This document shows, piece by piece, positions 2,227-31,312 of a stretch of 64,000 nt of DNA (its first letter is position 1; the number at the start of each line of letters is the position of its first letter). A program made the position numbers and the translations under genes. This DNA comes from Monocercomonoides exilis PA203 (lineage: Eukaryota > Protista > Preaxostyla), in NCBI GenBank assembly GCA_001643675.2, contig LSRY02000003.1, positions 1,116,001-1,180,000 of the forward strand. Direction: 5' to 3'. The notes under the pieces were generated by a model that did no database searches, had not been told where the DNA came from, and saw only the letters and a list, made by a program, of their open reading frames with translations.

Positions 2227-3624
2227 GGCAAATTAAAAGAATATCGGAACTTTCAAATTATGATTATTCTTGTTTCTATTGATTTCTTTTGTGTTTATAA
2301 AGTATTGAAATGTGAAAAAAGTTGTCGGAAAACGTTTAAAAAAACTTTCAATAATTTTTTATTCAAGCTGATCAAATGAAAATTTCTGCTTATTCATCAG
2401 AATAATTAGAAGCATCCTCTCCGTCATCAACGCTATTTGAATCTTCTTCTTTTTCATCATCACGCGGCCCATGCAGTATATCGTCAGCATCAGGAATTTC
2501 TTCATTTTCTGAAAAATCAATTTCTTCATCAGCAATAATGGGTTTTTCTTCTGGAATAAAATGAATCATTTTTTGCAAAATATCAGCAAAACTTGGTTTA
2601 AGATTCCTTTGAACAAGCCACATGGATAAACAATCAGCAATGAATGTTTTCCTTACTCCATGCTTTGGAAAAAACGCTCTTAAATGACTCCATAACCCTT
2701 CAACTGTATTGGTACATGCGCCGGTTTCTGGATCTTTGAAGTTCCTTTTATGACAGACCGTTATATGTTCATAACCAATATCTTTCAGACAATTATAGCT
2801 TTTCCATTCATCACTAATAATTGTTGTGCCTGCTAATATCCTTTCTTGAATAATAGGGATCAATGTTTCTTTTTTCCTGTCTGGCACGATGATAACAAAA
2901 TTTGTTCCAGCTCCTCCTCCTTCCTTCCTCTCAACTCCTCCGAAAATCCACAGCAAATCCTTCTTTCTTCCTCTTCCATATTTCCTTCTCCTCCAAACAG
3001 CCTCATCTATTTCGACGTATTTTCCCGGTCCTCCTAATTTAGGCATCGTTTCGTTCCAAATTTGTGTACACACAACTCTCACAACGCTTGTCCAGTAACC
3101 AATAGTTGGATATGAAACACCCGTCAGCAAATGAATTTGTTTTAATCCAATTCCAATCCAATAGTACAATAGAATCTGCAAAACTATATTTATTGGTAGT
3201 TTCATTTTGGAAAATACGGAATTTTTAAATATTGAGGTTTTTTTTCGGCAAGTTTGACACCAAAGATATTTGTAACCTTCTGTTTCCTCCCTGATTCTCC
3301 TTTTGCTTCTGCATTTAGGGCAATCCTTGGTAGCGAACTCTTGAAAACGTTTGAAAAACCAATTCCACGTTTCTTCTTTATCATGGAAGATCGTATTCAA
3401 TAGAAATACTGTTTGACTATTTTTTTCCTCTTCAGATCTTGCCATTAAACTTTTTTGATCATAAACCATAATTAGAATTTTTTTGACTTTTCCATGTTTT
3501 TTTAAACTTCTTAAAAAGACTTTCCGATAGCTGAAAATTTGCATATTGAATCAATATATAACGTAAATGACTTTCACTATTTTTTCGTGCAAAATTGAGA
3601 GTTCCGATATACTTTCATTTTGCC
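2227..3624 (-). mobile_element. Merlin DNA transposon, family B, apparently intact
   Basis: TIRs GGCAAATTAAAAGAATATCGGAACTTTCAA / GGCAAAATGAAAGTATATCGGAACTCTCAA (rc). Exact 8-bp TSD GATATGCA at 2219-2226 and 3625-3632. The empty site is visible in the second Merlin-A copy near 33973-33980. Confidence 0.95.
2390..3544 (-). CDS. Merlin/ISXO2-like DDE transposase (384 aa)
   Basis: Zn ribbon CPKC..CQTC, HTH region, LGGPGKYVEIDE, WIFGGVER, IISDEWKSY, HITVCH, TNTVEGLWS (D-D-E triad) and an acidic tail. Uninterrupted ORF; the true start may be a downstream Met. Confidence 0.92.
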   Translation of the reverse strand: MQIFSYRKVFLRSLKKHGKVKKILIMVYDQKSLMARSEEEKNSQTVFLLNTIFHDKEETWNWFFKRFQEFATKDCPKCRSKRRIREETEGYKYLWCQTCRKKTSIFKNSVFSKMKLPINIVLQILLYYWIGIGLKQIHLLTGVSYPTIGYWTSVVRVVCTQIWNETMPKLGGPGKYVEIDEAVWRRRKYGRGRKKDLLWIFGGVERKEGGGAGTNFVIIVPDRKKETLIPIIQERILAGTTIISDEWKSYNCLKDIGYEHITVCHKRNFKDPETGACTNTVEGLWSHLRAFFPKHGVRKTFIADCLSMWLVQRNLKPSFADILQKMIHFIPEEKPIIADEEIDFSENEEIPDADDILHGPRDDEKEEDSNSVDDGEDASNYSDE

Positions 3625-3678: not shown

Positions 3679-4713
3679 TTATTCGGGTTCATATTCAGAA
3701 TGCTCCGCTCCATCGCTAACTTCCATCGAATCCTCAGAAATTTCTTCATTTTGTTCAGCTAAAACTGGCACATCTTCTTCGTCATCATCTTCTTCGTGGT
3801 CTTCCTTTTCTTCTTCAATATATTCATCCACTTTATATTGGCAAATTTCTTTCACAGTTTCAACAAATGTTGATTGTTTTCTTTTTTGAAACACAAAAGA
3901 AGAATTATAATCATCAATGAATTTCTCCTTCAGCCCCGTGCGAGGCAAATCTTTTCGAAATTGGCTCCAAAGTCCCTCAATCATGTTGGTACATATTTCG
4001 CTTTCTGGATCTTTAAAATGATATTCATGGCAGACTGTTTTGTGGCCGTAACCGATTTAACTGAGAGATGAGTACGCTCTCCATTCATCACTGTGAATCA
4101 TAGTTCCAGGTAAGATATTCGCTTGAATGATTGGTAGCAATGTATCTTTTTTCCTATTAGGGACTCTGATAATAAAAAAGCTTCCTTGTTTCCCATCCTG
4201 AGTTCTTTGAACAGCTCCAAAAAGCCAGATCTGCTTCTTCCATCTGCCTTTATGATATTTTCTTCTGTTCAAAATTGCTTCGTCAATTTCCACAATTGTA
4301 TTTTCATCTCCAATTGGCTGAAACGATGATGCTGAGCTCAGTGCCATTGCTGCTGTTGCAAGGGAATGGTAAAAACCAACTGTGTTTCTATGCACACCAA
4401 GAAGTGAAGAAGTTTGCATGATTGAAAGCTTCATCCATTTGAAAAGGAAAATATGCATTAATTTTCCAATTCCTATTTTTTGATTTTCTATTGATAGATT
4501 TGACAGCAGGCTTATTGTTTTATTGCATCTGAAGCACCTCCATTGCCTGGAATTAGGATTTCGTTCATAGAGAACCATTTCCTTGTGACAATTTCTGCAT
4601 TCTATGTATCTTTGATTTAACACTTCATTTCTGAACCATTCCCATGTATCATTTGCGTTATGAAATAATTCTTTGAAGAAGCTAATTTTGAATTTGCGAT
4701 CCTCAATTTGCAT
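3679..4713 (-). pseudogene. Merlin-A transposase with one in-frame TAA (4057-4059)
   Basis: ORFs 4713-4057 and 3984-3679 are in the same frame: CRNC..CFRC, IVEIDE, IHSDEWRAYSSLS*IGYGHKTVCH..TNMIEGLWS. Confidence 0.9.
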
Positions 4714-4941
4714 TCAGAAAAAAATTGCAAAATTAATATTTTGATCAAAAATTTTGATCGATCCCATAATTTGAGTAAAAATTTTATAAATTTCATGGGT
4801 CCAACAAAAAAGTTTCCGCACAAAAAAATTCAAGCAAACCATATAAAACAGTTAATAATATTCTTATAATCATCCACACAGAAAATTGTTAACGGTCGTA
4901 TGTTGTGCACTTACCAAATATTTATATGGAGTTTATAAAAG

Positions 4942-5002: not shown

Positions 5003-5366
5003 ATAGGAACAAACAATTTTGGCAAAGGGCTACTTTAAGGGGACCTAAAAAATTTAAAATTAGCTTCATGAAAAGACTAAATGTTTCCAATTGAATTTTC
5101 GTCAACACTCTTTGGTGTTGACAATATGTTTTATTAATCATCTAACTTTTAAAGGGTTCGTTCTCAAAAACAACTGTCCCCTAATTGAATTTATTAATAT
5201 TTTTTAGTGTAATTAATTAATTTTAAAATAATTCGACATTTTTATGTTTTCAAATTTGTTTTTTATTGCCTTATGCAATTGTTTGGGTTGAAAATAACTC
5301 AATTTAAGTATTTAAATGAAGTTTGAAAAAAGTTTCGTAAACATAAGATTTGAAAAAAAAAAAACA

Positions 5367-6671
5367 AGAGATATTGTACATCAGCTATAGATCCATCTCG
5401 ATTAGGTCAATCAATATTATCGATTTATGAATATCTGATGGTTATTATCATCTTGTATAATAAGTTGGATATGCAATTATAATAGGTAGAGATCGATGAT
5501 TATTGCTGATACTCTTAGGGGTTTATCATGATTAGATATTCAGTGATGTTCTATAAAGATGGAGTCATTGATAAGTGTAATCGAGATATATCAATAGCTA
5601 ATATACCATATCTCCAAGGAGGAGAATTAGCTAAAAGATTAACTGAAACGGAGACGAAGTCTCCTAAGCAACTTCGTTGCGAAGTGTTCAAGTTGGTAAA
5701 TTAGTGGTGAAATTGTGTGTTATCGTTGATGAAATACATGAGTTATATGTTGAACGTGTTATGTGTCGAAGGTGTTTGTTGAACGTCGGTGTTATCGTTC
5801 GTGTAATCGTTGGTGAAAGTGTCGAAGTTGGTGAAATAGTGTGAAAATTGATGAAATTGTCGATGAAAAACATGAGTTGAACATGTGATGTTATCGTTGA
5901 TGTGAACGTTGGTGAAAACCGCAAATAAAAATAATTAAGTTTTTTGTTTTATAGTCAATGGGTCGGAAGAAGATATACACAACTGTGGAAGAAGCGAAAG
6001 CGGCTCAACAGAAACAAATTAAACAGTTTCAGAAAAAACGTAAGGAAGAAACTAAGTATTACAACGAACATGTATCTGAAAAACAGAAGAAGTTGATTAA
6101 GTATCTGAGGAGAAAGCTTATCGAAAGTGATGAGTTGTTAGATGAGTTGATGGAAAAAGTTAATGGTTAAGGTGAATGTGTTTATTTTTTGGTTGGAAGA
6201 GTTAATGGTGTTCGCAACGAACGCAGACTTTGTCTCGGTATCAAACAGTAGTCACGATGACATTGTGGTGGATTGCTAACATCAATATTTTTTGAACAAA
6301 TGGCAGTATGGTGGATTGCCACATCGATGTTTTTCACTTGATTTTGGTGTTATTTTGGTGTATTTAGCTTGAAAAAGTTGTCAATCGGTGTCCAGGATAC
6401 CGAATTGTGGCAATATCGAGATGCTTGGGGAAGGGAAATATTGACTAAAATCTCCGTGCTGGAAGCGTAAACAGATAAACCGGTAAACCGGATCTTTTTA
6501 TTTCGTCTGAAAAGAGCTGCCAACATGCCATTTTTGCCAACATGGGCAATTTACCCCTAATTTGGTATGATTTTGAGGGTTTTTATTTATTTTCGATTAT
6601 GTTGTCATCTTGCCACATTGCCACATGGAATCGTTGATGTTACACATTATTTATATTGTTAGTGGCACACA
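5367..6671 (+). repeat. Left TIR of the PrimPol-helicase element
   Basis: Reverse complement of 9406-10709. The differences I saw were one T in a homopolymer near 5940 and a 5-nt block at 5375-5379. Confidence 0.95.
5958..6170 (+). CDS. Small basic helical protein (70 aa) encoded in the left TIR, putative DNA-binding
   Basis: ATG-started MGRKKIYTTVEEAKAAQQKQ.., K/E-rich coiled-coil composition; identical copy in the right TIR. Confidence 0.65.
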   Translation: MGRKKIYTTVEEAKAAQQKQIKQFQKKRKEETKYYNEHVSEKQKKLIKYLRRKLIESDELLDELMEKVNG

Positions 6672-7018
6672 TCAGTTATATCGTCAGTGACACACATCAG
6701 TTGAACCGTCAGTTGTTTCGAACAGTCATCACTCTGCACCGGGTTGATAGTGCAGGTAATGTGAGTGATGCTGTGGTGTGGAAATATTGGGTTAAATCTC
6801 CGAGCTTATCACCTAGACTGGGTGGACCGGGTCAAATATATTCTGGAAATTATGTGGGCAAACAAGCAAACTGAGCAAATTGGGAAAAATACATTTAATG
6901 TGAAAATTAACTGTTTTCCGTCAAAGTTCGACATTAACCTCAACATCATCTTCCCCGTTATTTCACGTTTCAAAAATAAATCTGTTTCAAAAAAATTTGT
7001 TTTTTTTATTTTTATAAA

Positions 7019-9394
7019 ATGACAAACCCCCAAACAGACTCTGACAACGTAATCCAACAACTAATTGATTCAATTTCAACAGAACAGCAAACGCTGGGAG
7101 AACGAATGAAAGATCACCTTGTTAACTTGTTCGACTACAAGAAATACTCTGACAAGAAGCAGGGCCAACGACACACTGGAACAGCTGTCGATATCAGGAA
7201 ATGTGAGGATTTTTGTGTCGTTGATGTTGATATCAACAAATCCCTGCAAACTGAACATAAGAAAACCATTAGGAATTCCATCCTCGAGAAACTCCCCCGA
7301 AATGTCGGACTTGTTCAAACAGTTAATGGTGGTATTCACATTTATTGTGAGCTGTGTGATTATCCCCTCAGATGTTCTTCACAAACGAAAGTGTTCACAA
7401 GTCCAGAGTACGATATCGACATTTTTGCAGGTATTGGAGATGGAAAACAGAGGCTTGTTGTTCAAGCTGACTCTTCATGCAGAGAGATGAAAGATGGCAA
7501 GAGAATCATCACCAAATACATTCCCCTCAACAATTACAGACAGCTCACAGATCTTTCATCACTCGAGAGTGTTCTTGTCGTTTTCGGCATTGACCTCAAA
7601 ACAGAGAATACATCAGCGACAATAGCAGCTGAACCACACAATCTTCTCACACAAGATGGAGTCGTTGATATGTCTCCAACTGTCGCTCTTGCTCTTGTTG
7701 ATGGACTCAAAGATGTTGAAATACATAACTACACAGGTTCTTTGTCACTTGATTCTGAGTTAACTCTTTTACCGTTGTTTGCAGCTCTCAACTCTCTCTT
7801 CAACATTAACGGTTTCGACAACAAATCGATTGATTTTCTTTGCAATCAAATCAGAGAGACAGCTGCTCTGACAGCAAATGCAATCACTCGCTTTGAAGAG
7901 AAACGAAACAGGCATAGAGATAACAAGTCGCATCCATTTGTTCTGCAAAAGATTGTCAAGAGATGGAATCCAACATATTACAACGATGTGAACATTCCAC
8001 TCCTCAGAAAAGAGAATGAGCAAAAGGAAGAACCTCCACGAGAGATTACTGTTCATGAAATAGATCTCAACTCATCGTTCTCGTTCTCTGAAATCAGGGA
8101 TAAAGCTTGTCGAAAACAATATTCCTCACTATCTGAAGTCGCTGAAGATCTCACAAAAGTTCTGAGGTTTGTCGAAGCAAGGATGGAATTCATTGTGAAA
8201 GAGTTTGACATTCACACCTCTTGTTATTCAATTCCATTCAAGACAAAATCAGCAATGTCCGAACTGTTCAAAACAATAAAACTCTGGCATGATGATAAAA
8301 AGACTCTCACAGTTGAGACAGCTTCCGAACAATACTCTCATGTTCTATCGATTGATAGGGTGAAGTTCTTCTCAGATTACACTCGGATATTCTCTCTGTT
8401 CCATGGGTTCAAATACCAAATGGAAAACGAACAAAATGACGAAATCATCAAACCATTCCTCGATTTCACACGAGAAGTTATCGCCAACAACAACGAAGAA
8501 CTCTATCAATACATCCTCTGTTGGATTTCGTCAATTGTTCAAAATCCTGGTAAAAAAGCAGAAACATCACTTGTTCTCAAAGGTTTGCAAGGTATTGGAA
8601 AGAATGTCTGGACAAATGTTCTTGCTGAACCGTTGGCAGGATATTCATGTTCAAATGTCACAGAGATTGCAGAACTGACAGGTCAGTTCAACTCCATCGT
8701 CGAAGGGAAAATGCTGATTGTTCTTAACGAATTGAAGAATGTTGGAGATGATCGAACAGCTAACTTTGATGCGTTGAAGAATATAATCACGGATTCAACA
8801 ATCAGAATCAACGAGAAGAATTAGCCAAGAAGAACAGCTGAGAACGTTGCTAATTTCATATTTGTGACAAATCACACATACCCGGTAAAGATTGAGATTG
8901 GTGACAGGAGTTATATTGTTTGTAATTGAAACTCAAAAAATAAGAACAATCTCACATTCTTCAAGGATTTCACAAGCTCTTTCGACAAAGAATTCTATAG
9001 ACAACTTCTCTTTTATTTCCTCAGCAAAGATCTCTCCAATTTCAACACCAGGTCTATTCCAACAACAGAGGCAAAGGAAGATATCATTGCAGCGTCACTC
9101 TCTGTCATCGATGTGTTCTATCAGGAGCATTGCAATAAACTCAAAGAATGGTGGAGATGTTCTGAAGCACTATGTTTCAGACCAGTTGAATACAAGAATG
9201 ATCGCTCATTCCAACTAGCCATTATAGACAGATGTGAGCACAAGAGAATGGGTGGAAGAGATGGCCGAGTGTGGTGTTATAAACTTAAGCCAGAGTATGA
9301 ACAACTCCTCAGACGACGAGAAAATGAAGATGACATGGACTGTTCTGTGGAAATCAACAAAACATATTCGTTTTTTGGGATCATTAATATATAA
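7019..9394 (+). pseudogene. AEP-type primase-polymerase fused to a D5-like SF3 helicase (~791 codons; in-frame stops TAG 8822-8824 and TGA 8927-8929)
   Basis: N-terminal AEP motifs VVDVD, QTVNGGIHIY, DIDIF. Helicase Walker A LKGLQGIGKN, Walker B LIVLNE, then INEKN*PRRTAENVANFIFVTN (motif C) and GDRS (Arg-finger position). The same frame continues through KDLSNFNTRSIPTTEAKEDII to TAA at 9394. Confidence 0.88.
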
Positions 9395-9405
9395 ACTATA
9401 TAATT

Positions 9406-10709
9406 TGTGTGCCACTAACAATATAAATAATGTGTAACATCAACGATTCCATGTGGCAATGTGGCAAGATGACAACATAATCGAAAATAAATAAAAACCC
9501 TCAAAATCATACCAAATTAGGGGTAAATTGCCCATGTTGGCAAAAATGGCATGTTGGCAGCTCTTTTCAGACGAAATAAAAAGATCCGGTTTACCGGTTT
9601 ATCTGTTTACGCTTCCAGCACGGAGATTTTAGTCAATATTTCCCTTCCCCAAGCATCTCGATATTGCCACAATTCGGTATCCTGGACACCGATTGACAAC
9701 TTTTTCAAGCTAAATACACCAAAATAACACCAAAATCAAGTGAAAAACATCGATGTGGCAATCCACCATACTGCCATTTGTTCAAAAAATATTGATGTTA
9801 GCAATCCACCACAATGTCATCGTGACTACTGTTTGATACCGAGACAAAGTCTGCGTTCGTTGCGAACACCATTAACTCTTCCAACCAAAAAATAAACACA
9901 TTCACCTTAACCATTAACTTTTTCCATCAACTCATCTAACAACTCATCACTTTCGATAAGCTTTCTCCTCAGATACTTAATCAACTTCTTCTGTTTTTCA
10001 GATACATGTTCGTTGTAATACTTAGTTTCTTCCTTACGTTTTTTCTGAAACTGTTTAATTTGTTTCTGTTGAGCCGCTTTCGCTTCTTCCACAGTTGTGT
10101 ATATCTTCTTCCGACCCATTGACTATAAAACAAAAACTTAATTATTTTTATTTGCGGTTTTCACCAACGTTCACATCAACGATAACATCACATGTTCAAC
10201 TCATGTTTTTCATCGACAATTTCATCAATTTTCACACTATTTCACCAACTTCGACACTTTCACCAACGATTACACGAACGATAACACCGACGTTCAACAA
10301 ACACCTTCGACACATAACACGTTCAACATATAACTCATGTATTTCATCAACGATAACACACAATTTCACCACTAATTTACCAACTTGAACACTTCGCAAC
10401 GAAGTTGCTTAGGAGACTTCGTCTCCGTTTCAGTTAATCTTTTAGCTAATTCTCCTCCTTGGAGATATGGTATATTAGCTATTGATATATCTCGATTACA
10501 CTTATCAATGACTCCATCTTTATAGAACATCACTGAATATCTAATCATGATAAACCCCTAAGAGTATCAGCAATAATCATCGATCTCTACCTATTATAAT
10601 TGCATATCCAACTTATTATACAAGATGATAATAACCATCAGATATTCATAAATCGATAATATTGATTGACCTAATCGAGATGGATCTATAGCTGATAAAT
10701 TATATCTCT
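9406..10709 (-). repeat. Right TIR of the PrimPol-helicase element
   Basis: Reverse complement of 5367-6671; begins 11 bp after the helicase stop codon. Confidence 0.95.
9907..10119 (-). CDS. Second, identical copy of the 70-aa TIR-encoded protein
   Basis: Translation identical to 5958-6170. Confidence 0.65.
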   Translation of the reverse strand: MGRKKIYTTVEEAKAAQQKQIKQFQKKRKEETKYYNEHVSEKQKKLIKYLRRKLIESDELLDELMEKVNG

Positions 10710-10824
10710 AAAACCTTCAATCATTTTCAGTTTTGATCAATTGGTTATTATAAACCTAATATATTTATAATATCTCTACATTGCATTTTTAAGCTATTTA
10801 TTTATTGATTTAACAAAAAAATCG

Positions 10825-13550
10825 GGCAAGTTCCAAATATGTGGACCATCATTTTTTAAATTTTTAAACATATAAAACGAAAGAAAATTTCATGTTGATT
10901 AATTAAAAATTTGTTTTTTCAGTCGAAAATGTGTTTTTGAGATTTTTAATTGAATAATTAGATCAACCCCATATTTTTATTTATGTTATGCAGATAACAA
11001 AAATTTCCTGGCAAGCCGGATGCACAACGTGAACGCAAATCAAAATTTTATTGAACTGTTAAAGACATTATTCACTTTTGTTTACTTAAACATTTATCTC
11101 TTTATGCTCAAGAATTCGTTGAAAATACAATCAAATGATGAATTGAAATTTATCTGATTCAATTCAATTTTTTATTCTAGATGTTAAATGTTAGTATTAT
11201 ACACAATATTATTATTTATTTTCCGTTTAATTTTTTTGTTCATGATTTGAAGAAACAACCAATAGAAAATAATTTCATTTCATAACATGACCTTCGTTAA
11301 AATGAACGTTAACAACAATATGAATAACGATTTGTATTAATAGTTCAACATTTTCTTTTTCACATTATATACAAATTTAATTTCATAGAACAAATAAATC
11401 TTTATCGTTTGTAAAAAAGGATCTTGAAATAGAAATATTGGAATTGTTTGAAGTGATGTATTGAATGACAATCGGTTTGAAAGAAATAATTTAAGTTTCA
11501 TAATAACGGTTCATTCTCCACAAATTACTTCATTCTAATTCTCTGTTTCTGTATATCCTTTTTTGCAACGAACAACTAGTTTCAACAAAAGAACAACAAG
11601 AACAGCACACACACAAAACATAAATAATCTCAAATTCATTTTCTTTTTTTCAACTTTCAATTCTTGTCTTTTCTCTGTTCTGTTTGATTCCCCTTCTGTT
11701 CTTTAAAACAACATATTTTTAAATGCGATGAAGTTGTCACACCACCAAACATCAAGGAATATGTAATTTTGACTTTTTCATCGATCTGTGTAACCTTTGC
11801 CTGATAAATACTTGAATATGCTTTCTTTTCCGACATGTATCCTTTTTCATCAAATGCAGATCTCTCAGTTATTTCTTCATCGCATCTTCAAAAATCACGA
11901 TTAGAGATTGATTGAACAAGAACAGATGCTTTCCTTTCTCGATAAGATGCATGCTATATCACTCTGCTTTCATCTCCATCTCCTCCAGCTTTGGGACGAA
12001 CAGCGGTAATTGTTCTTCAGTTGCTACACTCAGAAGAAGGAATTCTTTGACCAGCATTCTTTTGAATCTGATATCATTCGCATTGATCACTTCATTCAAA
12101 TTATTCAAATATACTTGTCCTCCTCTGCTTCAGTTTCCACAGGGAAAACTCATACACCTCAAAATGTTAGCTCCTTCATTGTCATCCAAACTGATACAAT
12201 GCTTTTCTTCTGATGCTTTGAATGATTGTTAATCAATATATCTCATCAAATATCTTTTTTTGAACTTCCATTTTTTTTTCTTTCTCCATTGATTAAGCAT
12301 GTCACATCAAACACCGCATCTTTTTTCCAATGTGATTACGCGCTTGTCTCCTTCAGCTCCAACTTTCCAATTGCTTCATTTCTCCCGTCCAATATTCACA
12401 TTCCTTTCGTTGAAAAATATTCATGTTCAGGCTATTCTCCAGTTCTCTATCCCACCTCTAATTTTTCTCGACACAACTGAATATTTGCTTCCTTCATTCT
12501 CAACTGTGCTTCAATTCTTCTTCACACAGCACTCCCCTCCACATCCTTCTGCATCACACTTCTTCGCTTTCTTTCTCAAATGTTGTCCTCACATTCTTTT
12601 TCAAAGCCTCTTTGCATGCTAATAATGCTGGATTCACAAACTTCGCTATTTCCTTCATCAAACTTCGAAAGCTTTCAACACTGTTCAGTCATTTATTCCC
12701 TTTGATAATTCAAGCTCTTGTTCATTAACCGTTTGATCTCGTTTTTCACTATCACTCATCTTCCATCTCTTTTTCCCTCATTCTCTCTTTCAAAATAAAA
12801 CATCTACTTTTGGTTTTTTCTTCTCCTTTCCAAAAACATTTTTCTATCCAAAAAGTGTCTAAACAAATGCCCTTCACTGATCTAACCACTTTCTATATAC
12901 TCAATCATCATATTTCTGTTCTTCTTTATCATATGTTCATTTTCCGCCCATAATTTTCAACAAAGTTTTTCAAGACTTTATCAATTTGAAACCTTATGTT
13001 TTTCTGCAAATATAATAATCTTTGAGGAGTTGAACAACTTCAGAAGCAAAAATAAATCTTTTCACATTTAAATCATTTTATTCTTAAAATAAAAACCGAT
13101 TTTTATAAGAAAAAATAAAGATACACAAATTGCATACAAATTTAAAACACAATAAAATAAATAAATCAAACATAAAAATAGAAATACTCATTTCATTTAT
13201 TTTCAAATTGAATTGAATCAGATAAATTTCAATTCATCATTTGATTGTATTTTCAACGAATTCTTGAGCATAAAGAGATAAATGTTTAAGTAAACAAAAG
13301 TGAATAATGTCTTTAACAGTTCAATAAAATTTTGATTTGCGTTCACGTTGTGCATCCGGCTTGCCAGGAAATTTTTGTTATCTGCATAACATAAATAAAA
13401 ATATGGGGTTGATCTAATTATTCAATTAAAAATCTCAAAAACACATTTTCGACTGAAAAAACAAATTTTTAATTAATCAACATGAAATTTTCTTTCGTTT
13501 TATATGTTTAAAAATTTAAAAAATGATGGTCCACATATTTGGAACTTGCC
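10825..13550. mobile_element. Non-autonomous Merlin-type element with 346-bp TIRs carrying a host gene fragment (Pack-type)
   Basis: TIRs 10825-11170 and 13205-13550 (GGCAAGTTCCAAATATGTGGACC..) appear identical. Exact 8-bp TSD AAAAATCG at 10817-10824 and 13551-13558. No transposase motifs inside. Confidence 0.92.
11530..12900 (-). pseudogene. Decayed fragment of the surface-protein family inside the Pack element
   Basis: Minus-strand pieces QSIRRKALY, PLFVPKLEEMEMKAE*YSMHLIEKGKHL, ITERSAFDEKGYMSE, ITYSLMFG and CAVLVVLLLKLVVRCKK are colinear with PSLRRNIIC, SFFIPVLGSVEAKEETDRMKLTFKGML, IEHFDFDSNGFLSE, VSVHILFG and the TM-RWRK segment of the 22212-31312 protein. Boundaries approximate. Confidence 0.75.
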
Positions 13551-13912
13551 AAAAATCGGGTACCCTTTAAGTGGCATCTTGCCACAATTTTTTGAAATTT
13601 GTTTTGAAAAGGATTAACACTTACCAACAATTAATAATTTTCGAAAAAAATTTCTAAACAATTGTCAATTAACAAACCTTAATAAAACATTATTTTATTT
13701 CAGTTCTTTTTCACACTTTCACAGAGGTTATAACTTTCACTTCAATTGTGCAACAAGATTGCTCAATTTGTTTGTTAAAGTTTTTGAAGTATTATTTTCA
13801 GTTTTGCATATTTTGTTATAGTCATTTTTGAAAAGAATAAAACTTGATGGAATTCTTGTGAACAAAAGATATAATCTTCAATAGACATATTTCATTATTT
13901 TCCATAATTATT

Positions 13913-14173
13913 CTTGTAATTTGTCAAAATTTTTTTGAAAAGTTCATTTTGTTTAATTTTCTAATGTAACAAAAATTTCATATTTTGATCAAATTTATGT
14001 TCACAATTATGAAACTTCACAAAAACGGTAATGATAACATTCTTTTGGATTTGTTTCCATTTTGGTGAAGTTTCTTGAGTAGGAACAAAAAATTGATGAA
14101 AATATGAAATTTTTATTTTATTTGAAAATTAAATAAAAGGAACTTTTCAAAAAAATTTAGACATTTGTTACAA
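13913..14173. repeat. Degenerate foldback palindrome (centre ~14043)
   Basis: Mirrored arms: TTGTCAAAATTTTTTTGAAAAGTTC / GAACTTTTCAAAAAAATTTAGACA, AAATTTCATATTTTGATCAA / TTGATGAAAATATGAAATTT and GAAACTTCAC / GTGAAGTTTC. Confidence 0.8.
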
Positions 14174-14499: not shown

Positions 14500-16400
14500 A
14501 TTATCATATTCTTTTTCTTCTTTTTCTCCATCGAATACTTCGTCTTCTCCTCTTTTTTTTTCACCTCCTCCTCTTCTCATCTTCTTTTGCTATTTCTGTT
14601 TCTATTTCTATGTCTTTATCTTTATCAAATTCTTATTCTTATTCTTATTCTTTTTCACCAGTCGCACTGCCTCTGCTTTTGCCCTCCGCTCCCTTTTCCT
14701 CCTCACTTCCACGCAGTCCATTCACGTAAACAGCTCCAGTGCCTTTTTTCTGCGGATCCCGCTTCTCCAAGGTTGCACATCTCTTCGTCTCTTTCCACAT
14801 CCCGCAACACCACCACATCCTCCCCGTTCATCATTTCTTCCCCCTGGCTTTTGTTCGGAAGAAGCACCTCCGTCTCCCCACCCCGCAGTTTGTGATGGTC
14901 CCCGTGCACCACCCAAAACACACTTTTCTCTGAAAATTACTCACAGTGCAGCGGCAGCTCCAGCATCCGTCCTGTATTCTTATTCGCAACTCCAATCAAT
15001 TCTCTAACTTGATGTTCAGAATTATCTTCCTCTTCCTAAACCTCATGCTTCACCTCCACTCTTCCGTTTCCACATCCCCCATTCGCTTTTTTATTTCCAT
15101 CATGGATCTCCATCCTTCATCACCACTTTCTTCTCCAGCTCCACCTTCAATTCCTTCGATGCTTTCGGAGCATCCATTCCACACTTTGCTCTTCCTATTC
15201 ACCTCTGCCATCTCCTTGGGTTGCACAAGTCGCTGATCCTGCTGCTTCCTCTGCCGATGCTTCCGCACGTGGAACCCCACAGTCCTTGCCACAACTATCA
15301 CACCCACCGTCCTCACTTCAATATGCAGTGTGATCGTCCACCCATACAGCTCAAACAGGCCCCTCTCACTGCCCACCCCATTCTTTCTCCTTTCCACAGA
15401 TAATTGCTGTTGTTGCGTTGAACTTTTTTCCTTTTCCTGCGACATCCTCCCCTGCCCTTCCCTCTCCCCCTTCCCCGCCTCCCCGCTCCTCCACAGCCAG
15501 CTCCTCGCTCGAATACACCACACGCGCCAGCACCTCCTCCTCTGCCCCGCTTTCCTCAATCACCTCCCGCCCGATCCTCCCGTACCCCCGCCGCTCAGTG
15601 TTCTGCCCTGTGCTCTCAAACCGGTATGTCCTCACCCGCTCGCCCCCGTCTGCCCCCCGCACAATTATCTGGAAGTACAGCCCGCACTGCACCAGCTCCC
15701 GCATCACAAACTCCAGCCGCGCCTGCCCCCCGCTGCTTGTCCAGCTGACGTTCGTCAGCACCGGCCGGAAGTACACACCGCCTGCCCCTCCACTCGCCCC
15801 CTCCACCACACATCACTCCTCAATGATCCACCATGACCTGCTCTCCCCCGCCCGCTCCCCGTTCCTGATGCCCCGCACATCCACCACACCGCCCCCGTGC
15901 TGCCCGATCCCGCCCTTCGACGAGTTCAACACGCTCGTGTTCCACACCCGGCACTCGCACTCCTCCACAAGCACCAGCTGCGACTCCATCCGGCACAGCC
16001 CGCTCCTGCTCCCCGCACCAAACACCCCGCTCACTGCTGTGCTCCCCACCTCCGCACGCTCCCTCCTCTGTTGGATCACCTGCATATCGATCTGTGTCAG
16101 CTTTTCCCAACTCACCACACACTCCTCAACCACCAGCACGCATCCCTCTTTCCTCCTCAATCTCCCATTTCATTTTTGAAATATCATTGAAAACATGAAT
16201 AACTGTGACTCCATCACAACCAACTCTGCTGCTGCTCTGCACTTTTCAACATCTCATGCCTGCTGACAAATTCCCACAGCACCTCACACGCTACGGCACG
16301 TCCAATCTTCTCCGAACCGTTATTCGCTTCTGATACTCAGCCTCTAAACTCCTGCAATTGTTTGAGTTTTGATATGCACATCTTTTGTCCGCTCCATGTC
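14500..16400 (-). pseudogene. Fragmented, GC-rich member of the surface-protein/pseudokinase family
   Basis: Frameshifted pieces LCRMESQLVLVEECECRVWNTSVLNSSKGGI, YFRPVLTNVSWT..LEFVMRELVQCGLYFQI..YRFESTG, a TM-like VGVIVVARTVGF and FWVVHG..CLREW match the C-terminal half of the 22212-31312 protein. Boundaries approximate. Confidence 0.75.
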
Positions 16401-16909
16401 TATGTGAAGAGCGTGCTTTAAAGATTGAAATAAGTTAGAAAAAATGTAAGAAAAAAGAAAAAATAAAAATTATTTACAAACGATAAATACTAAAATTTTG
16501 ACAAGTTTAAAACTTTAATATAAACATTTTTTCAAATTAAAAATACAAACATTTGAAAAAATGGACTATTGACTTAAATAACGTCAGTGACAGACAGTGA
16601 CGTGAGTGCCGTGGTATTTATATTATTAAAAAATGATCACGACATTACCCATCGTTCATTCATTAATTAAAAATAACCGATTAAAAAAAATTTCAATAAT
16701 AATCATAATAACACATTAAATCTTATTTAATATAATAAAAATATTTATCCATTGTTAATAATTTTTATTTTTTTGACAAAAGTGGAATTTGAAAAAATGA
16801 GTGAATAAAAACTTTTTTTTGTCACGTCAAGTCACTCCAAAAATGTTCACGTCAGAAGGCATGTGACGCAGATGTTAAACTGAAAAATATAAATAATGCT
16901 ATTCTTTTT

Positions 16910-17475
16910 CTGGTTATGACTAATGATCAAAAACTTGCTCAAATTTTCACGAGCTTAAGTTTTGAGTGTTTTGAGTATTGTTATTGTTATTTAACCTAAC
17001 TTCTTTATATTTTTGGTTGTATTTTGTATTAAACACCTCGTTTTATTATTATTTTTTCCATTTCCGATATTTTAATTATTCAAAGAATACATTTGCATTT
17101 CCGAAATTTTTTGCTATTAAATTGGAGGAAATATGAAAATTATCTGCAAAAAAAAGTGTTCAAAAAATGAAAGTTTTCAATTTATCATTATCTTGATGAT
17201 TTTTCAAAAAGACTTGTTTCTGTGAATTTTTGTTTCTTTTGTCTAATATTTAATTCTGCAAATTCAAAAAATTTTTGATATTGGTGATGATTTTTGATAT
17301 CAAATTATTTCTATGAAAATTTTCTTTCTGAGAATTTGAATTAAATACAAACAAATGATCACTGTGAATCAATTTCCCTTTTGTTGATAAATTTGCAACA
17401 GATGAATTGTGAATAGATTTTTTTCATTTGAATAAATTCAACTTATTTGAATGAACTGGGTTTTTTTAAATGATG
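16910..17475 (-). repeat. Dispersed AT-rich repeat, degenerate inverted homolog of 21390-22060
   Basis: Reverse-complement blocks CTCGTGAAAATTTGAG, TGATATCAAAAATCATCAC and the TTCAAATAA-type units match blocks in 21390-22060 in mirrored order. Confidence 0.6.
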
Positions 17476-17949
17476 TCATGTTATCCTAAATGGTTAAAGT
17501 GACACTTGAATAAAGTGCGATACACTTAAATAAAAAATGTATGAAAAAGTAATGAAAACTAATTATTATGTTATAGTGTTTTATCTTTTTCTTTATCAAC
17601 AAAAAAATGAAAAATTCTTAAAAACTGAGATTATTCCTTTTTCTTAAACAACATTTGATATATGTTTGAAGAAGATTTTATTTGACAAAAAAAATGAGAA
17701 ACATAGAAAATTAATAATTTATTCTTGTTCATCAATTCTCTTTTTAACTTTTTCACATTTTTTTGACCTCTGTGTAATTAATTATCTTGTATAAAAATTT
17801 GCTTCTATTGAAGTTCATGGAGTGATCTGCAGCCAACAAAGCATATAAATTTGAAGATATCAGTCGAGTCAACAGGTGGAAGATGATTTCATCTTTATTA
17901 CTTTATTGGTTGAATGGATATATTTCATTTTCATAGATAGATTTTTTTG

Positions 17950-22211: not shown

Positions 22212-25200
22212 ATGAAAGCCGCATGCAATATTGTTGCGTTGTTGTTGCTTGCTGCTTACTGCTGTAATGACGAAGGCATTACAGAAAGGCCATATCATCA
22301 AAAATGGAACGGGGAGATGCAGAGAAGCATGATCAACATTGCAGATGAAAATAACAAGGGAAACAATTATTTTTACAATTCATTTACAAAAGTTATAAAA
22401 CCAGCTGACAATCACATTTACAGTATCCAAACGAATCTAAAAATCATCAACACCTCCTTGTGTGTGACCCATCTCAACATCATCCCCCTCGCTGGTTGCC
22501 CACTCCTCACTGCCCAACACCGCTCCACTGCCTCCATCTGTTCCTCCACTTGCACCATCCACCCACCTTCACTCACCAACAGCCACCACCACCACTGCCC
22601 CCTCTTCCTCTCTGCCCATGCCTCCCTCGCCCTCACAAACTTCTCCCTCACCACCCACCAACCTGCCATCTTCTCCTTCCCCCTCTTCTCCACCCCAAAC
22701 AATCTCCTCCCACATGCCCACTCCCCAATCCCTGTCTCCTTCTCCATCTCCCACTCCTCTTTCTCCTCTTTCGTCTCCCTCATCCAGCCCTTCCTTTTTT
22801 CTCCTTCTTCCCTCTCTTCCCCATCCCCTTCTCGTTCTCCATCTCTTTCCCCTTCTCCTTCATCTCCCTCATCCTCATCCTCATCATCTTCTTTTTCTTC
22901 CCCTTCCCCTTCCATTTCTCATTCGATTTCCTCTTCCCCTCTCCATATCCATCACAAATCCCATCCCCACCTCCAAATCCACCTCCATCTCCATCTCTCA
23001 AACACCCTCTTCTCCAACATCTCCTCTCCCCAATCCCCTCTATCTCTTCCATCCCTTCCTTCACACTCACTCAATTCATTCATCTCAACCACTTCTTCCT
23101 CTTCTTCCTCTTCCTCTTCCACCAACACCAACACCAATACAATCCCTTCCTTCTCTCTTCATTCATCCCTCTCCATCCACTCAACCATCTTCAAACACAC
23201 CCACAACCCCATCGATGGAACCATCCTCCCCAACCTCAACAGCCCATCCACTTCTCTCTCTGCCTTCAATGCCTCTTTCCTCCACCAAACACGCTCTTCA
23301 TCAAATGATCCCGTTGAATATATTGGATCCGAAACTCAAAGAGAGAAATTAAGTCGATTGTCCTTTACTGCTTTGAATAGCTACCTCTTTGAGTGGTGTG
23401 AATGGAATGATACAACTGGTGGATCAAGTGATGGAGGAGCGCTTTATGTTAACCGCGCAAATGCAAATCTCACGATTACGTCTTGCTCATTAGCTAAATG
23501 CTCATGTTACGGATATGGTGGAGCGTTATACTGTTACAGTTTGTTAAATCTCAACTTCACCAAATCCAATTTCACAAGTTGCTCGGCTGCTCATGGAGGA
23601 GCAGTGCACACTTATCATTCACAATCAAATTCTGTTTGGACATTCTCAGAAAACAGAGTGGAAAGTTGTTCAATCACAAACTGGTGCGGAACTGGTTGGT
23701 TTTTTGCTATCAGCACCTTATCTTCAAACGGTCAATTTTTGTTTTCTGAATGCAAGTGTATTTCAAACTCAGGTGGTGATTCTGCTGGTTCTCTCACATT
23801 CAATTGGCCTCCTCAAGTGAAGCCAAATCAATTTTTGGTTGATGATTGCCAGTTCATTAATAACAAATTAACTCCTTCTTCGACATATGGAGGTGCCGCG
23901 ATGTGTTTTTATCCTCCGTATTCCTGGATGAATGGAGTAAAATTCATCACATTCTGCTTCTTCGATGGAAATATAGCTGCAAATGGAATGGGGAATGATG
24001 TGTTCTTTTACGGAAGTGATATCACCCAATCTCCATTCCAGCAATGTGGCTCAACAACTCCAACAAAAAGAGTGTGGAATAATGGAACAGCTGATAATAC
24101 CGTGTTCAATGGCTGGCTCCCACTCATCGCCCAGAACAAAATCGTTGCCAACAGCGGAAATGATGTTGATGGTTGCGGAAAAACACGCCAAAGCCCATGC
24201 GCCACCATCGAGTATGCCCTCAACGGCTTCATTTCCCTCCTCCAAGACGCTTCCCTCACACTCCTCTCCTCAACATTTGTTCCCACTCAAACACTCACCT
24301 TCAGCGCGGTTGACACTAAAATCACTGGAAATGGCACAACTGCCACCACTATCGCCTCCAGTGGCATTCCCCAACCATCAAACTCATATTCGCAGTCATC
24401 ACAATCAGCATCATCATTTTCTTCATTTTCTTCATTATCAACATCTTCTTCTTCACCAGATCCATCTGCCTCGTCTGCCCTCTTCCAACAGACCCAGGGC
24501 TCCCTCACGGTCTCTGCCCTCGCCATCGCCCACAACTCCTCAAACCCCATCACCCCCATCCTCTTCCACCTCTCCGATAACTCCCCTTCCCTCAACCTCA
24601 ACACAACCACCATCACTGGAACAACCTCCAATTCAATCACCACACCCCTCTTCTTCCTCACTGCTGGCTCCCTCGCCCTCAACCACACAGCAATCACCCA
24701 ACTCTCCCTCAACAGCCAAAGCATCTTCCACCTCACCTCCCTCACAGCACCCCTCACCCTCAACTCCTCCAACATCACCCACATCACCTCCACAGCCACC
24801 CCCACCAGCTGTGTCATCTCCTCTGCCGCCTCCCCTGCCCTCTCCCTCTCCCTCGCCAACTGCACCATGACCAACATCAATTCAGAACAGTTGAGCCAAC
24901 AAACTGCCACCAATGGCGGGTGCATCTCATTCGCCTCGTCTGCCCCTGCCAACTCGTTTTCGGTGAGTGATTCCACCTTCTCCACCTGCTGTGTGAACGA
25001 GGATACAAGTTCTGGAGGAAGAGGTGGCGCTCTCATGATCGAGTACAAGGATAATTCAGAAGTGTCAGAATCCTCCTTTTCCATAACCAATATTGTGTTT
25101 TCAGCCAACAAAGCGAGCGTCGGAAGAGATATGTATTTTGTGTGTGAATCATTTGTCGCTTCTGTGAAAGAGCCCATGTTCGCCTTCATGGGAAACATCA

Positions 25201-28200
25201 CTCAGAAAGACAACTCGATTGCTGGACATGATAGAACAGAAGCATTTAGCGATTGTGATGTCGATTTATTCATATTCTTCGATGGTTTCTTTGACAGTAC
25301 AATATATGTGGATGGAATATCAGGAGTGGAAGAGGTGTATTGTGGACTGGAGAAGGCGCCATGTTTGAATGTGAATTATGGGATAGAGCGTTTGAAGAGA
25401 ATACAGAACACAAAAGAGGAGATTATTGTTATTACAAATACGTTGATGGCAGGATGTGTGGATGTGAGTGAGATGTGTATAAAGGCAAAAACTGAGACAA
25501 TTGTAGAAATCGAATGCCAAAGGGAAGTGAGTGGATCTGAAGCGTGCGTGGTGGAATCATCATCGCTGACAGAAATGGAATTCATTGAAATTATTGTTCC
25601 ATCGAGTTTTAACAGAACAATCACATCAGTGATTGAATCGAGCACTCAAAATGGGGAGTTGCACATGAAGAACTGTGAGATGAATGTTGTTGGAGGAAAG
25701 GAAAATACAATTGGATATTTCTTGATCAGATCAATGGGAAAGATGGTTGAGCTGGATTCTGTCACGATTTCAGATGTGAAATCAACAGTCTCGCTATTTT
25801 CATTGTCTCTTTCCTCATCAAATGTGAATGAACAGGAATACAAAGTGAAACTATTGAATTGCACAATGGAAAGATTGGAAATTGATGGAGGTGAAGAGGC
25901 AGCCGTGATTGGAGGGAATGTGGAAGTTGGGATGATGATAAATGGAAGCAATATTGAAGGGCATTGTCGGAGAAGAGCAAAGAAGGAGGAGCACTGAAGA
26001 TAGTGTTGAGTGCAGATGGATACATTACAATTGAAAAGAGCTCATTTGTTGGATGTCTTTGTGAGAATATGAGTGAGGGAGGAAAAGGAGGAGGGATATA
26101 TCTGGATTGCAGTTCAAATGAAGAAGGATTTCAGCTTTCATCGATATCGTTTTCTGGATGCTCAGCAACGATAGGGAAGAACATGTTTGTGAAGAGTGGG
26201 AATCTGGTGAACAGCGTGAATACAGAGCGTTTTGCATTTGATTGCACAGGATTCAAGGATGATGGGAATGCATTTGTTGGGGAAGATGGAAAATATGGAG
26301 AAATGGATCTTCGAGTGTTTCTTGTTACTCTGAAGTGGATGGTCGTGTCTGTATCGACTGGTGGACATGACACGTTGGGATGTGGAAGTGAAATATTCCC
26401 GTGTGAATCTATGAAAAGTGGAATTGACCACATTGACAGAAGTGGAACAGAAGGAGAAAGGAAAGTGAAAGTGAAAGATGAAGGAACAATTGAGTATATT
26501 TATTCCTTTACAGATGCTCTTGTGATCGATGGAGAAGCCATTAAACATAAGACTGTTCATTTTAAAGAGAGAATCAATGGAGATTCTGCATCATCATCGT
26601 CATCTGTTATTTCATCAATTCAGCCACTTAGCTTGTTATCTTTGAAGTTACAGATTCCAAATCAATTTACACCAAGTATGAATTCACTGATCTCATCGAG
26701 TGGAGATCTTCAACTCGAAAACTGTTCATTTGACATCCAATCATCAACGGCCATTCAATACTCGTTGATAACCACAACAGGTGGAAGTTGCACATTGAAG
26801 GGATGCAGTTTGACAGGTTGTTCATTTTCCAAATCTCCATTGGTGATGGCTTCTTCTGTTTTATTTGAAAACAGCAACTTTTCAAACATTACGAATACTG
26901 GAAGCGGTGAAGGAGGTCTTACAAGAGTGACATTGCAAGGGAATAAAGATTTAGCGATAAAATCAACAAATGCATCATCTTGCTCACTTTCATCAAGCAA
27001 TGGGAAAGGAGGATTCTTGTATTTGGATTGTGAAAATTGTTTGAATGAAAATCCATTTATTTTTGATACTGGCGTAACATTTGAGAACAACAATGCAACT
27101 TTTGGAAAGAATATGTTCATTTTGGCAAAAGATTTTAACAGTTCTGTTACGAATGAGTCATTTGCCTTCAATTACTCATCAATGAAAGATGATGACAATT
27201 TGTTTGTTGGAAGTGACGATTTTCATCAAGAAAAGGATTTATTCATGTTTCTGATTCCATACAGCTCATTTGAGATATTTATTTCATTGAACGGATTTGA
27301 TGTCACGCGTTGTGGAAGTGAGGAAGAGCCATGCAAAACGATGTGGAAAGGGATGAAAAATATGGAAACGGGAGATGATATGAAAACAATTCAAATATCA
27401 GGATCAACAATTATTCAAGATTCATTCAGCATGTCCAATTATCAGATCAAAAAGGCTTCATCAATGGGAGAAGAGAATGTGAAAGCGATATTGAATTTTG
27501 AAAAGGTAATTGGAGGTCAGCTGGAATATTTCATGGAAAATGATAATCATCTTGAATTTTCCAACATCCAGCTCCAATTAACATCTAGATTTGACAACTC
27601 AGCCAAAACGATTATTTCAAACAAAGATGGAGATCTGGTGATAAGTGAATGTTCCTTCCATTCAGAAGCAGAAGTGAACAATGGTTTTGATTGTGTATTT
27701 GTGGATGCGATTGGAGGAAGCGTGAAAGTGAATGATTTGTCGATTGAATCGTGCAATGTTGGAAACAGTATATTTGTCATTCATGATGCTGGAGTTTCTT
27801 GTTATTTCTTGAATGTTCGAGTAGAATCGTTGAATGAAAGCGGCGGATGTCTTCTTCTGATCAAAGGAACTGAATTAGCAACAAAGATTAATGAAGTGGG
27901 TGAGGAAGATATCAATATTAAGATTGATAATTCATCATTTTCAGGAGTGAAGAGAAGTGACAATGGAGCAAGCATTTTGGAGTCGAAGAGTGATAAAAAG
28001 ATCGATTTGGTTGTGAAGGAGAGCAACATCACAAAAGACAAAGCAGAAATGAGTGAAAAAGGAGGTGCAATATTCTTCACATTGGGTGCATCTGGATCAA
28101 TGAAGATGATTGACTCGACAATTAGCCATTGCAGCTGCAGTCTTAGTTCAGGGAGAGGAGGAGGAGTGTATTTGGCAACAAAGGAACGAGGAGAATTGAA

Positions 28201-31200
28201 TTTCACATTTGTGGGAATGAAATTCAATGAAAATACAGCAAGAGTCGGGAATGATATTTTCATTGAATGCTTCAACATCACATCGCAGATTAATGAAAGC
28301 CAATTCCAGTTTGATCTTCGAGAGAATCATTATTCACGAATTAATGCGATATATGGAATTGATGAATGCCAGTATACAGTTTACACAGATCTGATTGAAT
28401 TTGTAACAATTTATCAGAGCGACACAATCATTGTGAGCAGTGTGAATGGAACGAATGAGAGGAGATGTGGAACAAACACACTTCCATGTTATTCGATTGA
28501 GCATGGCCTGATTCATTTGACTTCGGAGATGATTAGTCAAATACTCGTTATACAAGAGAGTGTGATTGGGGAAGAGATAAATCTGAAGGAAATGAGCTTG
28601 TGTTCAAAGAGCAGAGAAAATTGCATAGTTGAAGTTGAAACAGGAATTGAAAGGACGAGAGAAGCGCTGGTGATAGCAAGTGGAACAGTCTCATTGCTGA
28701 GAGTGAACTTTGTATTTGATTCGAATTTCATTTCTCAACATGAATCACTAATCTCACCAAAAGGTGGTATTCTTGAAATATTGAATTGTTCATTCACAAC
28801 AAAACAATCTAATGAAGAAGGAAATGAATATGCAAGCATTCCATTTCGTATTTTTAATATGGAAAAAGGAGAATTGCAACTTGATGGATGCACAATATCA
28901 AATCTAGTTCTTCATGAATCTGCATTGTATCTTTCTTCTCAACTTCCATCAGTGATTTATTTATTAACGATTTGCCATTCGACAATTTCAAAATCTCTGA
29001 TTGATATAAATGAATGTGGGCAATTAACAATTAAGGATTTCAATACAGAAAATATCTCAGTTGAAGGAGATGAAGAATCACTGATATCATGCTTGTCAAT
29101 GAAAAAGACAATTCAATTAGCAAATTGCACAATGGGTGAAGTCAGTTCAAAGACCACAAAAGGAAAATTGATGAAAGTGGAGAATTGTTTGGATGTGAAA
29201 ATGGACAGCTGCATTTTCGATGGGAGTTCAAAGGAAAGAAACGAGAAGAGTTTGAATGCAGAAGAAGAGATGTGCAGATGGGATGGATCTCTTGTGGATG
29301 CTGTGAAGAGTTCTGTGATGATGAAAGACACAACAATATCGAATTCACAAGAAGGTGGAATAACAATGAGTGGAGGGGAAATGACTGTTAATGATGGAAG
29401 ATTTGAAAACAACAATCCCTCAATTGAAGGATATCCATCACTGAGAAGAAATATCATCTGTTCAGATTCTGGAACATTGAATGTGATGAGTTTGAAAGGA
29501 GGAGATGGATGGGAAAGAAATACATCACTTTGGATGTTGAATGAAGGATGCAGTTTTGGAGGGATTGTTTCAGAGAGTGATTCATCGTTCTTCATTCCAG
29601 TTCTGGGGAGTGTGGAAGCAAAAGAAGAGACAGATAGAATGAAGCTGACATTCAAAGGAATGCTTCTTGTTCCATGCAATTTGTCATTTTCAGTTGTGAA
29701 GAGAAAAGGAGAAGAGAAAGAGATTGAACATTTTGATTTTGACTCAAATGGGTTTTTGTCAGAAATAGAAGTTGAGGGAAGTGTGGCAAAAGATCTGATC
29801 AGCAGTTGTGGAGATGAAATCGAAGTTAGTGTGCACATTTTGTTTGGGAATGCTGAATCTCCATCATCTACAGATTCATTCATTTTGAAGAATTCAACTG
29901 TATCTGATGGAGATGGAAACATTGCGAAAGGAGACAACAAAACAAATTCATTGTGGATTGTGATTGCTATTATTATATTTGTTCTTTTTATTATTCTGAT
30001 AGGATTTGTTGTTGTATCAATTCGATGGAGAAAGGCAAAGAATGAAAACAAAGATTTGAGAGAGATTGTGAATGATAACATCAGAAAAGATCCGAAGGCA
30101 TTTGAAATGGTGACAATGGAGATGTCGCCTGAGGAGCAGTGGAGGAGGGTAGAGAAAGAGGCAGAGAAGAAGAATGAAGAGAGGACAAAGAAGAGAGAAT
30201 ATGAAAAGAAAATGCATCATTCTGAGTCATCTGAATATCTTTTGGCTGAGAGTGGATCAACAGAATACATCCTTGAACAAGATTCTGATAAAATCGGTAA
30301 ATGGGATTTGGAGAAGGAAGAAGAAGAAGAGACACAAAAGCGAATTCCATCACCATCAATCTCATCCACAGATACAGAAACCACATTTGTTCGAGGGGAG
30401 GATCTGTGTCCAACAACCTCATCGATGTCAAACTTGGTGGATGCAATGGCCTGCTCATCTCCTTATGAAAAGTTGATTGTGGATTTGAGGGATTCTCTGT
30501 TCATGCTGCTTCATGGGAGGAATGAGAAGAAAGATCTGGCGATTGGCACTCTGAAGGAGAGAGAGGTGACAGGAGCGCAGATGCTGTTCTGGGTGGCGAA
30601 TGGAGCGTTGCACTCGCTTGAAGATGAGGAAGACGAACTTCCCTCTTTGCGAGACTTGAGTCCGCACATTGTGCTGTTCTCGGAGCACATGGTGATCTGC
30701 ATTGCGCTCCACTCCGACTGCTCCTCGTCATCTGATGATTCGGATTCATCCACAATCTCATCATCAACCACGATTGTGACATCTGCAAGTGTTGTTGATG
30801 ATGATGATGATGAAAGAGATTCTCTGCCCTCATCAGCGTTTGAGGATGATGAGGATAAGTGGAAGGAGTGTTTGAGGTGGAAGGCGCCCGAGCTGGTGAT
30901 GAACAGGAAGATGGGAGCAACAGAGAAGTCGGTGGCATTCTCGATTGGGATGATGCTGTGGGAGTGTGTGACACTCGAGATCCCGTTTGGAGAATACGAA
31001 GGGGAAGTGGCAGGGCAAAAGATTGCTGATGGAGAGAAGCCGGATGAGAGGGGAATTGAAGAGAGCATGATGAAGAATGTGGTGAATGCGTGTCTGTCAG
31101 CAGAGCCATCGAAAAGACCAACACTCACAGAAGTGAAGAAAGAGCTGGTTGGGTTATTTCCTTCTGGGACATTTGTTGTGACGATGACAGATGCGATCAT

Positions 31201-31312
31201 GCTTGAGGAAAGCAGCGAAGAGCAGGACGAAGAAAATGATGATGGAAAAGAATGTGAAAAGGAAGGGAAATTGGATGTGAATGAGATGAAAGACATGTTT
31301 GACAAAGGATGA
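22212..31312 (+). CDS. Giant type-I membrane protein: signal peptide, Pmp/pectin-lyase-like beta-helix repeats, TM helix, C-terminal kinase-like (probably pseudokinase) lobe; single frameshift at the G-run 25959-25961
   Basis: ATG 22212 MKAACNIVALLLLAAYCC; repeated GGA(L/I)Y..F..N.A..G.D and CG....PC.T modules; TM LWIVIAIIIFVLFIILIGFVVVSI; LRDLSPH, LRWKAPE, SVAFSIGMMLWE, PSKRPT. One extra G restores EG-A-LSEKSKEGGAL across ORFs 22191-25997 and 25964-31312 (~3,030 aa). Confidence 0.85.

Follow-up and report, generated by a model that had tools for sequence, protein, structure and literature searches.

Transposons of the Merlin superfamily start with 5'-GG, have terminal inverted repeats (TIRs) of 24-462 bp and produce target-site duplications (TSDs) of 8 or 9 bp, and the genome of Monocercomonoides exilis is reported to contain more than 100 Merlin copies in at least seven families, with TIRs of 23-29 bp and TSDs of 8 bp (PMC8101967). 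Fragments of host genes enclosed between the ends of TIR elements have been described in animals and plants. The animal Pack-TIR set of Tan et al. required an identifiable parental copy and consisted mostly of hAT and TcMariner elements, and gap filling after insertion was proposed for most of the single-copy cases (PMC8277862). Among the matches listed by full-text searches of the openly accessible literature, none reported gene capture by Merlin. The word Merlin does not occur in a 2026 plant review (PMC13317346) or in the body of the article by Tan et al. (PMC8277862), and in the 12 supplementary files of the latter it appears as a column head only.

The DNA analysed here (the window) is a stretch of 64,000 nt from M. 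exilis PA203, and all positions are window coordinates. An element at 10825-13550 had been interpreted in a sequence-only reading as a Pack-type, Merlin-like element carrying a piece of an expanded receptor family of the host. Compared with the seven published M. exilis Merlin families (F1-F7), it shares the GG termini, the 8-bp TSD, a similar terminal motif and homology to a Merlin 5' end. However, its TIRs are perfect over 346 bp and apparently derive from two 5' ends, it has host cargo in the place of a transposase, and its terminus is identical to none of the seven families as published (PMC8101967).

Ends and insertion site of the element

The two TIRs are complementary at 346 of 346 positions and the mismatch first appears at position 347. 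The element ends with GG and CC, its terminus being GGCAAG, and the 8-mer AAAAATCG is present on both flanks without any difference. The repeats, the ends and the TSD were seen directly and are as the sequence-only reading had given them, and the TIR length falls inside the range reported for the superfamily (PMC8101967). The features of the ends and of the related elements are as follows.

10817..10824, plus strand: left target-site duplication AAAAATCG, exact flanking 8-mer
10825..11170, plus strand: left TIR, 346 bp, of which the outer ~230 bp show homology with the 5' end of a Merlin, covering its terminus, its subterminal region and the first codons of its transposase
11008..11157, plus strand: putative transposase-start relic within the TIR, with its mirror image at 13367-13218 (minus strand)
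13205..13550, minus strand: right TIR, same sequence as the left
13551..13558, plus strand: right target-site duplication AAAAATCG, exact flanking 8-mer
2227..3624, minus strand: autonomous-type Merlin with DDE_Tnp_IS1595 (E 1e-19) and TSD GATATGCA, its 5' end homologous to the TIR; a relative
5021..13583, no strand given: host Merlin-like MITE, interrupted, with GGCAA ends, 18/24 TIR identity and exact TSD ACAATTTT

Starting at base 1, the TIR aligns over its outer ~230 bp with the 5' end of the transposase-bearing Merlin at 2227-3624, which was the best of five ends tried. In an anchored comparison of 200 nt this end scored 60 against the TIR, while the other four scored 19-29, with the 3' end of the same Merlin at 19. 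Real AT-rich windows scored 7.5±13 (maximum 40; 0/152 reached 60), and the score was reached by none of 474 real AT-rich controls starting with GG, the control maxima over all sets being 40, 45 and 49. The score climbs to ~230 bp and then forms a plateau, and the end-to-end DNA match, which is AT-rich and gapped, comprises only 159 of 228 paired letters. Position 184 of the TIR (CTG GCA AGC) is in register with the start codon of the 2227-3624 Merlin (ATG GCA AGA, position 180), and the putative transposase relic, compared as protein, gave a match that was not significant (P 0.20-0.45). By this homology between the TIR and a Merlin 5' end, the element consists of two Merlin 5' ends placed head to head.

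The first listed copy in all seven published M. exilis Merlin families fits, by eye, the motif GG(C/T)A(A/T)(A/G)N5-8A(C/T)AT (PMC8101967). The terminus of the present element also fits it, with about six chance matches expected per 64 kb. The host MITE does not fit it, nor does one Merlin end within the window. The motif was written after the element had been seen and therefore counts as supporting evidence only. The searchable published M. exilis alignments contain neither GGCAAGTT nor a Merlin whose terminus matches (PMC8101967), and a metagenome scan with the transposase of the window returned a single unrelated locus. Within the window there are 57 GG..CC pairs with identical 8-bp flanks, and only three of them have a TIR identity of at least 15/24, i.e., the 2227-3624 Merlin, the 5021-13583 element and the element studied here, all starting with GGCAA.

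Elements of the hAT and P superfamilies have 8-bp TSDs and CA/TA-type termini, and MULEs have TSDs of 9-11 bp and MULE-related ends, long TIRs and G-rich termini being typical of them. The sequence-only reading had named hAT and MULE as superfamilies to which the TIRs might belong instead. With the terminus GGCAAG the element resembles neither hAT nor P. An ordinary Pack-MULE with a 9-bp TSD (AAAAATCGG) could be suspected from the long TIRs and G-rich termini, and such a TSD is formally possible because a G follows the right 8-mer. However, the two ends would then differ by one base, the symmetric reading giving 8 bp. The TIR, moreover, shows homology with a Merlin end, and two GGCAA-ended neighbours have 8-bp TSDs, so that we consider a MULE very improbable. 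Judged by its termini, TSD and end homology, the element is very probably a non-autonomous Merlin derivative with a dead cargo, in agreement with the Merlin-like nature that had been claimed for it.

The insertion point lies 25 bp inside the right end of the host MITE, whose TSD is found at 5013-5020 and 13584-13591 and whose length is 486 bp when its two inserts are subtracted. Sequencing contigs were available from four runs (X1-X4) of one sample, which may be the source of the window itself. An empty site was observed in X1, where four contigs run from the target 8-mer along the right flank and, continued leftwards, agree with the left flank in 16 of 19 letters (compared by eye). By this alignment the four contigs represent paralogues of the host MITE that lack the insertion, which indicates that the 2726-bp unit is an insertion and not resident DNA bracketed by chance. 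A reading of the right flank as a Kolobok end (TTAA) was abandoned in view of the host MITE, which has an 8-bp TSD of its own.

The host MITE has received two separate long-TIR insertions and has kept both ends and the exact TSD, so that movement of the whole as a composite of 8.6 kb is conceivable in principle. The other insertion, at 5367-10709, has TIRs of 1318 bp (99.3% identical), AGAGAT ends and the flanks AAAACA and AAAACC, and encodes a 614-aa ORF with a C-terminal match to DUF5906/VapE (D5-like helicase). The depth of its outer arm is more than 100x single copy, and it resembles a reduced Polinton-like or transpoviron-like element. Palindromic MITEs of ~240 bp are located at 13922-14163, with a depth up to ~1000x single copy, and at 31991-32230, with GGGTGATTCTTTTT ends that by eye resemble insertions in published Merlin copies. 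A second Merlin family is represented by copies at 2013-4915 and ~32690-34184, in opposite orientation and 99.8% identical over 1290 bp; both have the same in-frame stop in the transposase, and the former contains the nested 2227-3624 Merlin. The Merlin transposases of the window (2390-3550 and 4057-4713) have CxxC...CxxC motifs at the N-terminal side; described Merlins are said to be without the IS1595 zinc-finger domain (PMC8101967).

The receptor-kinase cargo

Tyrosine-kinase-like genes form the largest family among the genes of M. exilis (PMC6759080) and overlap unclassified repeats (PMC8767320). The window contains a giant receptor/TKL-kinase gene at 22-31 kb, whose ORF at 25958-31312 matches a database protein without any difference and carries a C-terminal kinase-like domain. 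Relatives of this ORF above the threshold numbered 583 proteins, and M. exilis was named for 119 of the best 120, the remaining one being that of the window itself. The gene (22128-31312) comprises two long ORFs in different frames that overlap at 25958-25997 (a frameshift or small intron), and its database protein begins only at 26069. Decayed pseudogenes of the family are also present at 15495-20506 (minus strand) and 63314-63994 (plus strand), the latter with 61-73% identity to MONOS_1034, the subfamily nearest the cargo. At 35152-39899 (minus strand) there is a distant kinase-less member with a beta-helix-like ectodomain and a transmembrane (TM) segment, showing ~24% identity to the others. 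Altogether, with the other pseudogenes included, sequence of the receptor/kinase family makes up 13,216 of the 64,000 bases (21%), and an element could therefore acquire some of it without any special connection. The interior of the element and the neighbouring gene are listed below.

11171..11522, no strand given: AT-rich interior stretch, matched neither by the family profiles nor by the Merlins of the window
11523..12129, minus strand: cargo piece C, spanning the membrane-proximal domain, the transmembrane helix and some cytoplasmic residues, identified by profile and MONOS_1034
12135..12395, minus strand: cargo piece B, ectodomain, corresponding to P0125 1681-1768, 25/88 identical
12696..13061, minus strand: cargo piece A, matching the beginning of a repeat module situated earlier in the ectodomain (~P0001 426-545), identified by profile
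22212..31312, plus strand: neighbouring giant receptor/TKL-kinase gene, of the same family as the cargo and not its donor

The element had been described as having no transposase inside, and this was confirmed: no Pfam family was found in any of the six read-through frames of the interior, and its comparison with the two Merlin transposases of the window gave no match above background. Its AT-rich parts did not match the Merlins of the window, and the interior yielded no trace of either the body or the 3' end of a Merlin.

The sequence-only reading depended on significant similarity between the interior and the receptor family, and such similarity is present. The frameshift-aware family profile score of the interior was 80 against 18.8±2.5 for shuffles (maximum 27.9, n=40), and its best HMM domains gave 27.1 and 22.7 bits, whereas 300 shuffles did not exceed 5.0. 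The profile recognized three collinear pieces in three frames. When 120 family proteins were compared with the interior by tBLASTn, 19 matched (best E 8e-7), and an unbiased HMMER search with a 76-residue open stretch against 1.84 billion proteins gave one match, P0124 (MONOS_1034), at E 4.5e-4. Two word-based protein searches with cargo pieces yielded 43 and 259 candidates, none of which passed; as the HMMER search did find a relative, these empty results reflect low sensitivity. Matches of the cargo in the ESM Atlas, all below 0.9 and including weak DDE_Tnp_4 clusters, were treated as noise.

Piece C is identical to MONOS_1034 (P0125 1999-2160) at 68 of 163 positions over 12129-11644, with two frameshifts and two stops and a score of 128 (shuffle maximum 26.5, n=30); the TM helix follows at ~11640-11540. 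Piece B scored 30.5 (shuffle maximum 21.5; 0/30 reached the score) and is separated from piece C by a gap of ~230 missing codons, and the two pieces together contain four frameshifts and four stops in 251 aligned columns. Piece A, detected by one of four profiles, is heavily decayed and uncertain in its limits (score 33.3; shuffle maximum 22.9, 0/60). The stretch between pieces A and B was not significant alone, 12 of 100 shuffles reaching its score, and the family profiles detected no kinase part or N-terminus. On these profile and alignment scores the interior is a collinear, internally deleted and frameshifted piece of the giant receptor/TKL-kinase family. The membrane-proximal domain and TM helix that had been recognized before are both there, but the cargo reaches further upstream, to pieces B and A. 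The label Pack-type is apt in that a family fragment is enclosed by the ends of one Merlin-derived, non-autonomous element with a TSD.

The cargo had been called homologous to the giant gene at 22-31 kb. This is correct for the family, but the particular gene is a weak relative: it ranks 114th among the best 120 of the 583 proteins, with 44 of 173 positions identical (25%), and a direct tBLASTx comparison gave E 0.003. At this rank and identity the neighbouring gene is not the donor. The nearest family member among the matches listed is MONOS_1034, at 42% identity. The search for a donor with tBLASTn, which had been suggested before, did find the family but no donor locus, and no long DNA match of at least 80% to the cargo was found in X1.

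Copy number and origin

The interior is represented in X1 by one 2094-bp contig with zero differences and a depth of 92.2. The junction contigs, each overlapping the TIR by 30 letters only, have depths of 93.2 and 86.2, and the TIR contig is exactly 346 bp long with a depth of 163. In X2 the interior contigs have depths of 31.5-37.4, and X3 and X4 are shallow. At 80% likeness, X1 contained nothing long on the interior, with small rises in a few bins only. No amplification of the cargo to several loci was seen, the interior having single-copy depth in this one run, and the element appears to be a single dead copy. Among the matches listed, diverged relatives of the outer TIR in X1 were identical at 54 of 64 and 50 of 57 positions, with depths of 158.5 and 200.7.

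Our best explanation of the nature and origin of the element, to which we assign a probability of roughly 0.6 as a whole, involves an old capture and a recent replacement of one end. Long ago, a Merlin would have acquired host DNA in place of the gene for its transposase, template switching in the course of gap repair being the probable route, and the captured cargo would then have decayed. More recently, the 3' end could have been swapped for an inverted copy of the 5' end, creating the perfect 346-bp repeats. Mariner MITEs whose 3' end has been exchanged for the 5' end (PMC4161770) and the TIR extension in Galileo (PMC3573991) are precedents for such a step. Transposase supplied in trans by a Merlin elsewhere would finally have excised the unit, likely as a whole, and pasted it into the neighbouring MITE, causing the 8-bp duplication and leaving the copy number unchanged. 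The order of the events (capture, decay, end replacement, move) is more tentative, and we would not quite give it even odds. The divergence of the TIR arms is below 0.9% (95% bound), in contrast to a badly decayed cargo without a near copy, and the cargo likely died long before the last move of the element. If a live gene had been captured as the arms formed, a near-identical donor would be left, and gap filling after insertion meets the same problem; none is seen, which argues for an old capture followed by decay.

Cut-and-move of a dead pseudogene, or continuing homogenisation of the arms, would account for the observations nearly as well as old capture and end replacement. On the former, two identical 5' ends, e.g., from sister chromatids or from a local hop and a deletion, recently came to bracket an already dead pseudogene, and the segment was cut and moved, not copied. 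The perfect TIRs, the decayed cargo and the missing donor would thereby be explained in one step, the interior is without a Merlin remnant, a related model exists for Pack-CACTA (PMC13317346) and a similarly decayed family pseudogene lies nearby at 17921-19314 (five frameshifts and eight stops in ~455 codons). However, the loss of the donor segment must be tolerated, and we regard this course of events as unlikely. That the element is an old long-TIR element, belonging to a family with different interiors and with arms homogenised by repeated conversion, could be suggested by the diverged TIR relatives in X1, which stand at ~2x single-copy depth with nothing long matching the interior, and by the nearly identical arms of the neighbouring long-TIR element. 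These relative contigs are only 116-204 bp long, however, and could equally be the 5' ends of two ordinary Merlin copies, which makes repeated conversion, in our opinion, quite unlikely.

The sequence-only reading had further proposed that transduplication from live family genes helps to spread or shuffle the receptor family. The cargo is indeed a family fragment and apparently moved together with the element. However, a broken, single-copy fragment that has no close donor, no long match of 80% or more in X1 and no detected kinase part or N-terminus, and that lies in a window rich in family DNA beside a gene that did not donate it, hardly suits this role, and we give the proposal very little credence.

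Comparison with other gene-capturing elements

Like the single-copy Pack-TIRs of animals, the present element holds a host gene fragment between the ends of a TIR element and is single copy, and capture by gap filling is plausible in both; however, it is without a close parent and its unit appears to have moved after the capture (PMC8277862). It works like a Pack-TIR, but it lacks the parental copy that Tan et al. asked of young Pack-TIRs and is not multicopy. With the Pack-MULEs and Pack-CACTAs of plants it shares the non-autonomous TIR form and the rearranged host pieces (PMC13317346, PMC8903248, PMC6379663), and it differs from them in superfamily and kingdom, in not being amplified and, presumably, in lacking expression and function. 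Long TIRs resulting from duplication of one end are also shared with mariner MITEs (PMC4161770) and Galileo (PMC3573991), in which element DNA is located between the arms, whereas in M. exilis pieces of a host gene are.

The expansion of the receptor-kinase family is not explained by one dead copy. With the present element, the range of Pack-type capture of genes comes to include the Merlin (IS1595-related) superfamily as well as a metamonad protist. That a unit having 5' ends on both sides is apparently movable by Merlin transposase bears on the recognition of the ends, and perfect arms around a far older cargo provide a clean case for the origin of long TIRs. It is rather doubtful that M. 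exilis has a family of Pack-Merlins, in which two identical 5' ends enclose varied host DNA and are moved by Merlin transposases; if true, no Merlin family before the Pack-Merlins would have been seen to capture genes, and through them parts of the giant receptor-kinase genes would change their place in a protist genome.
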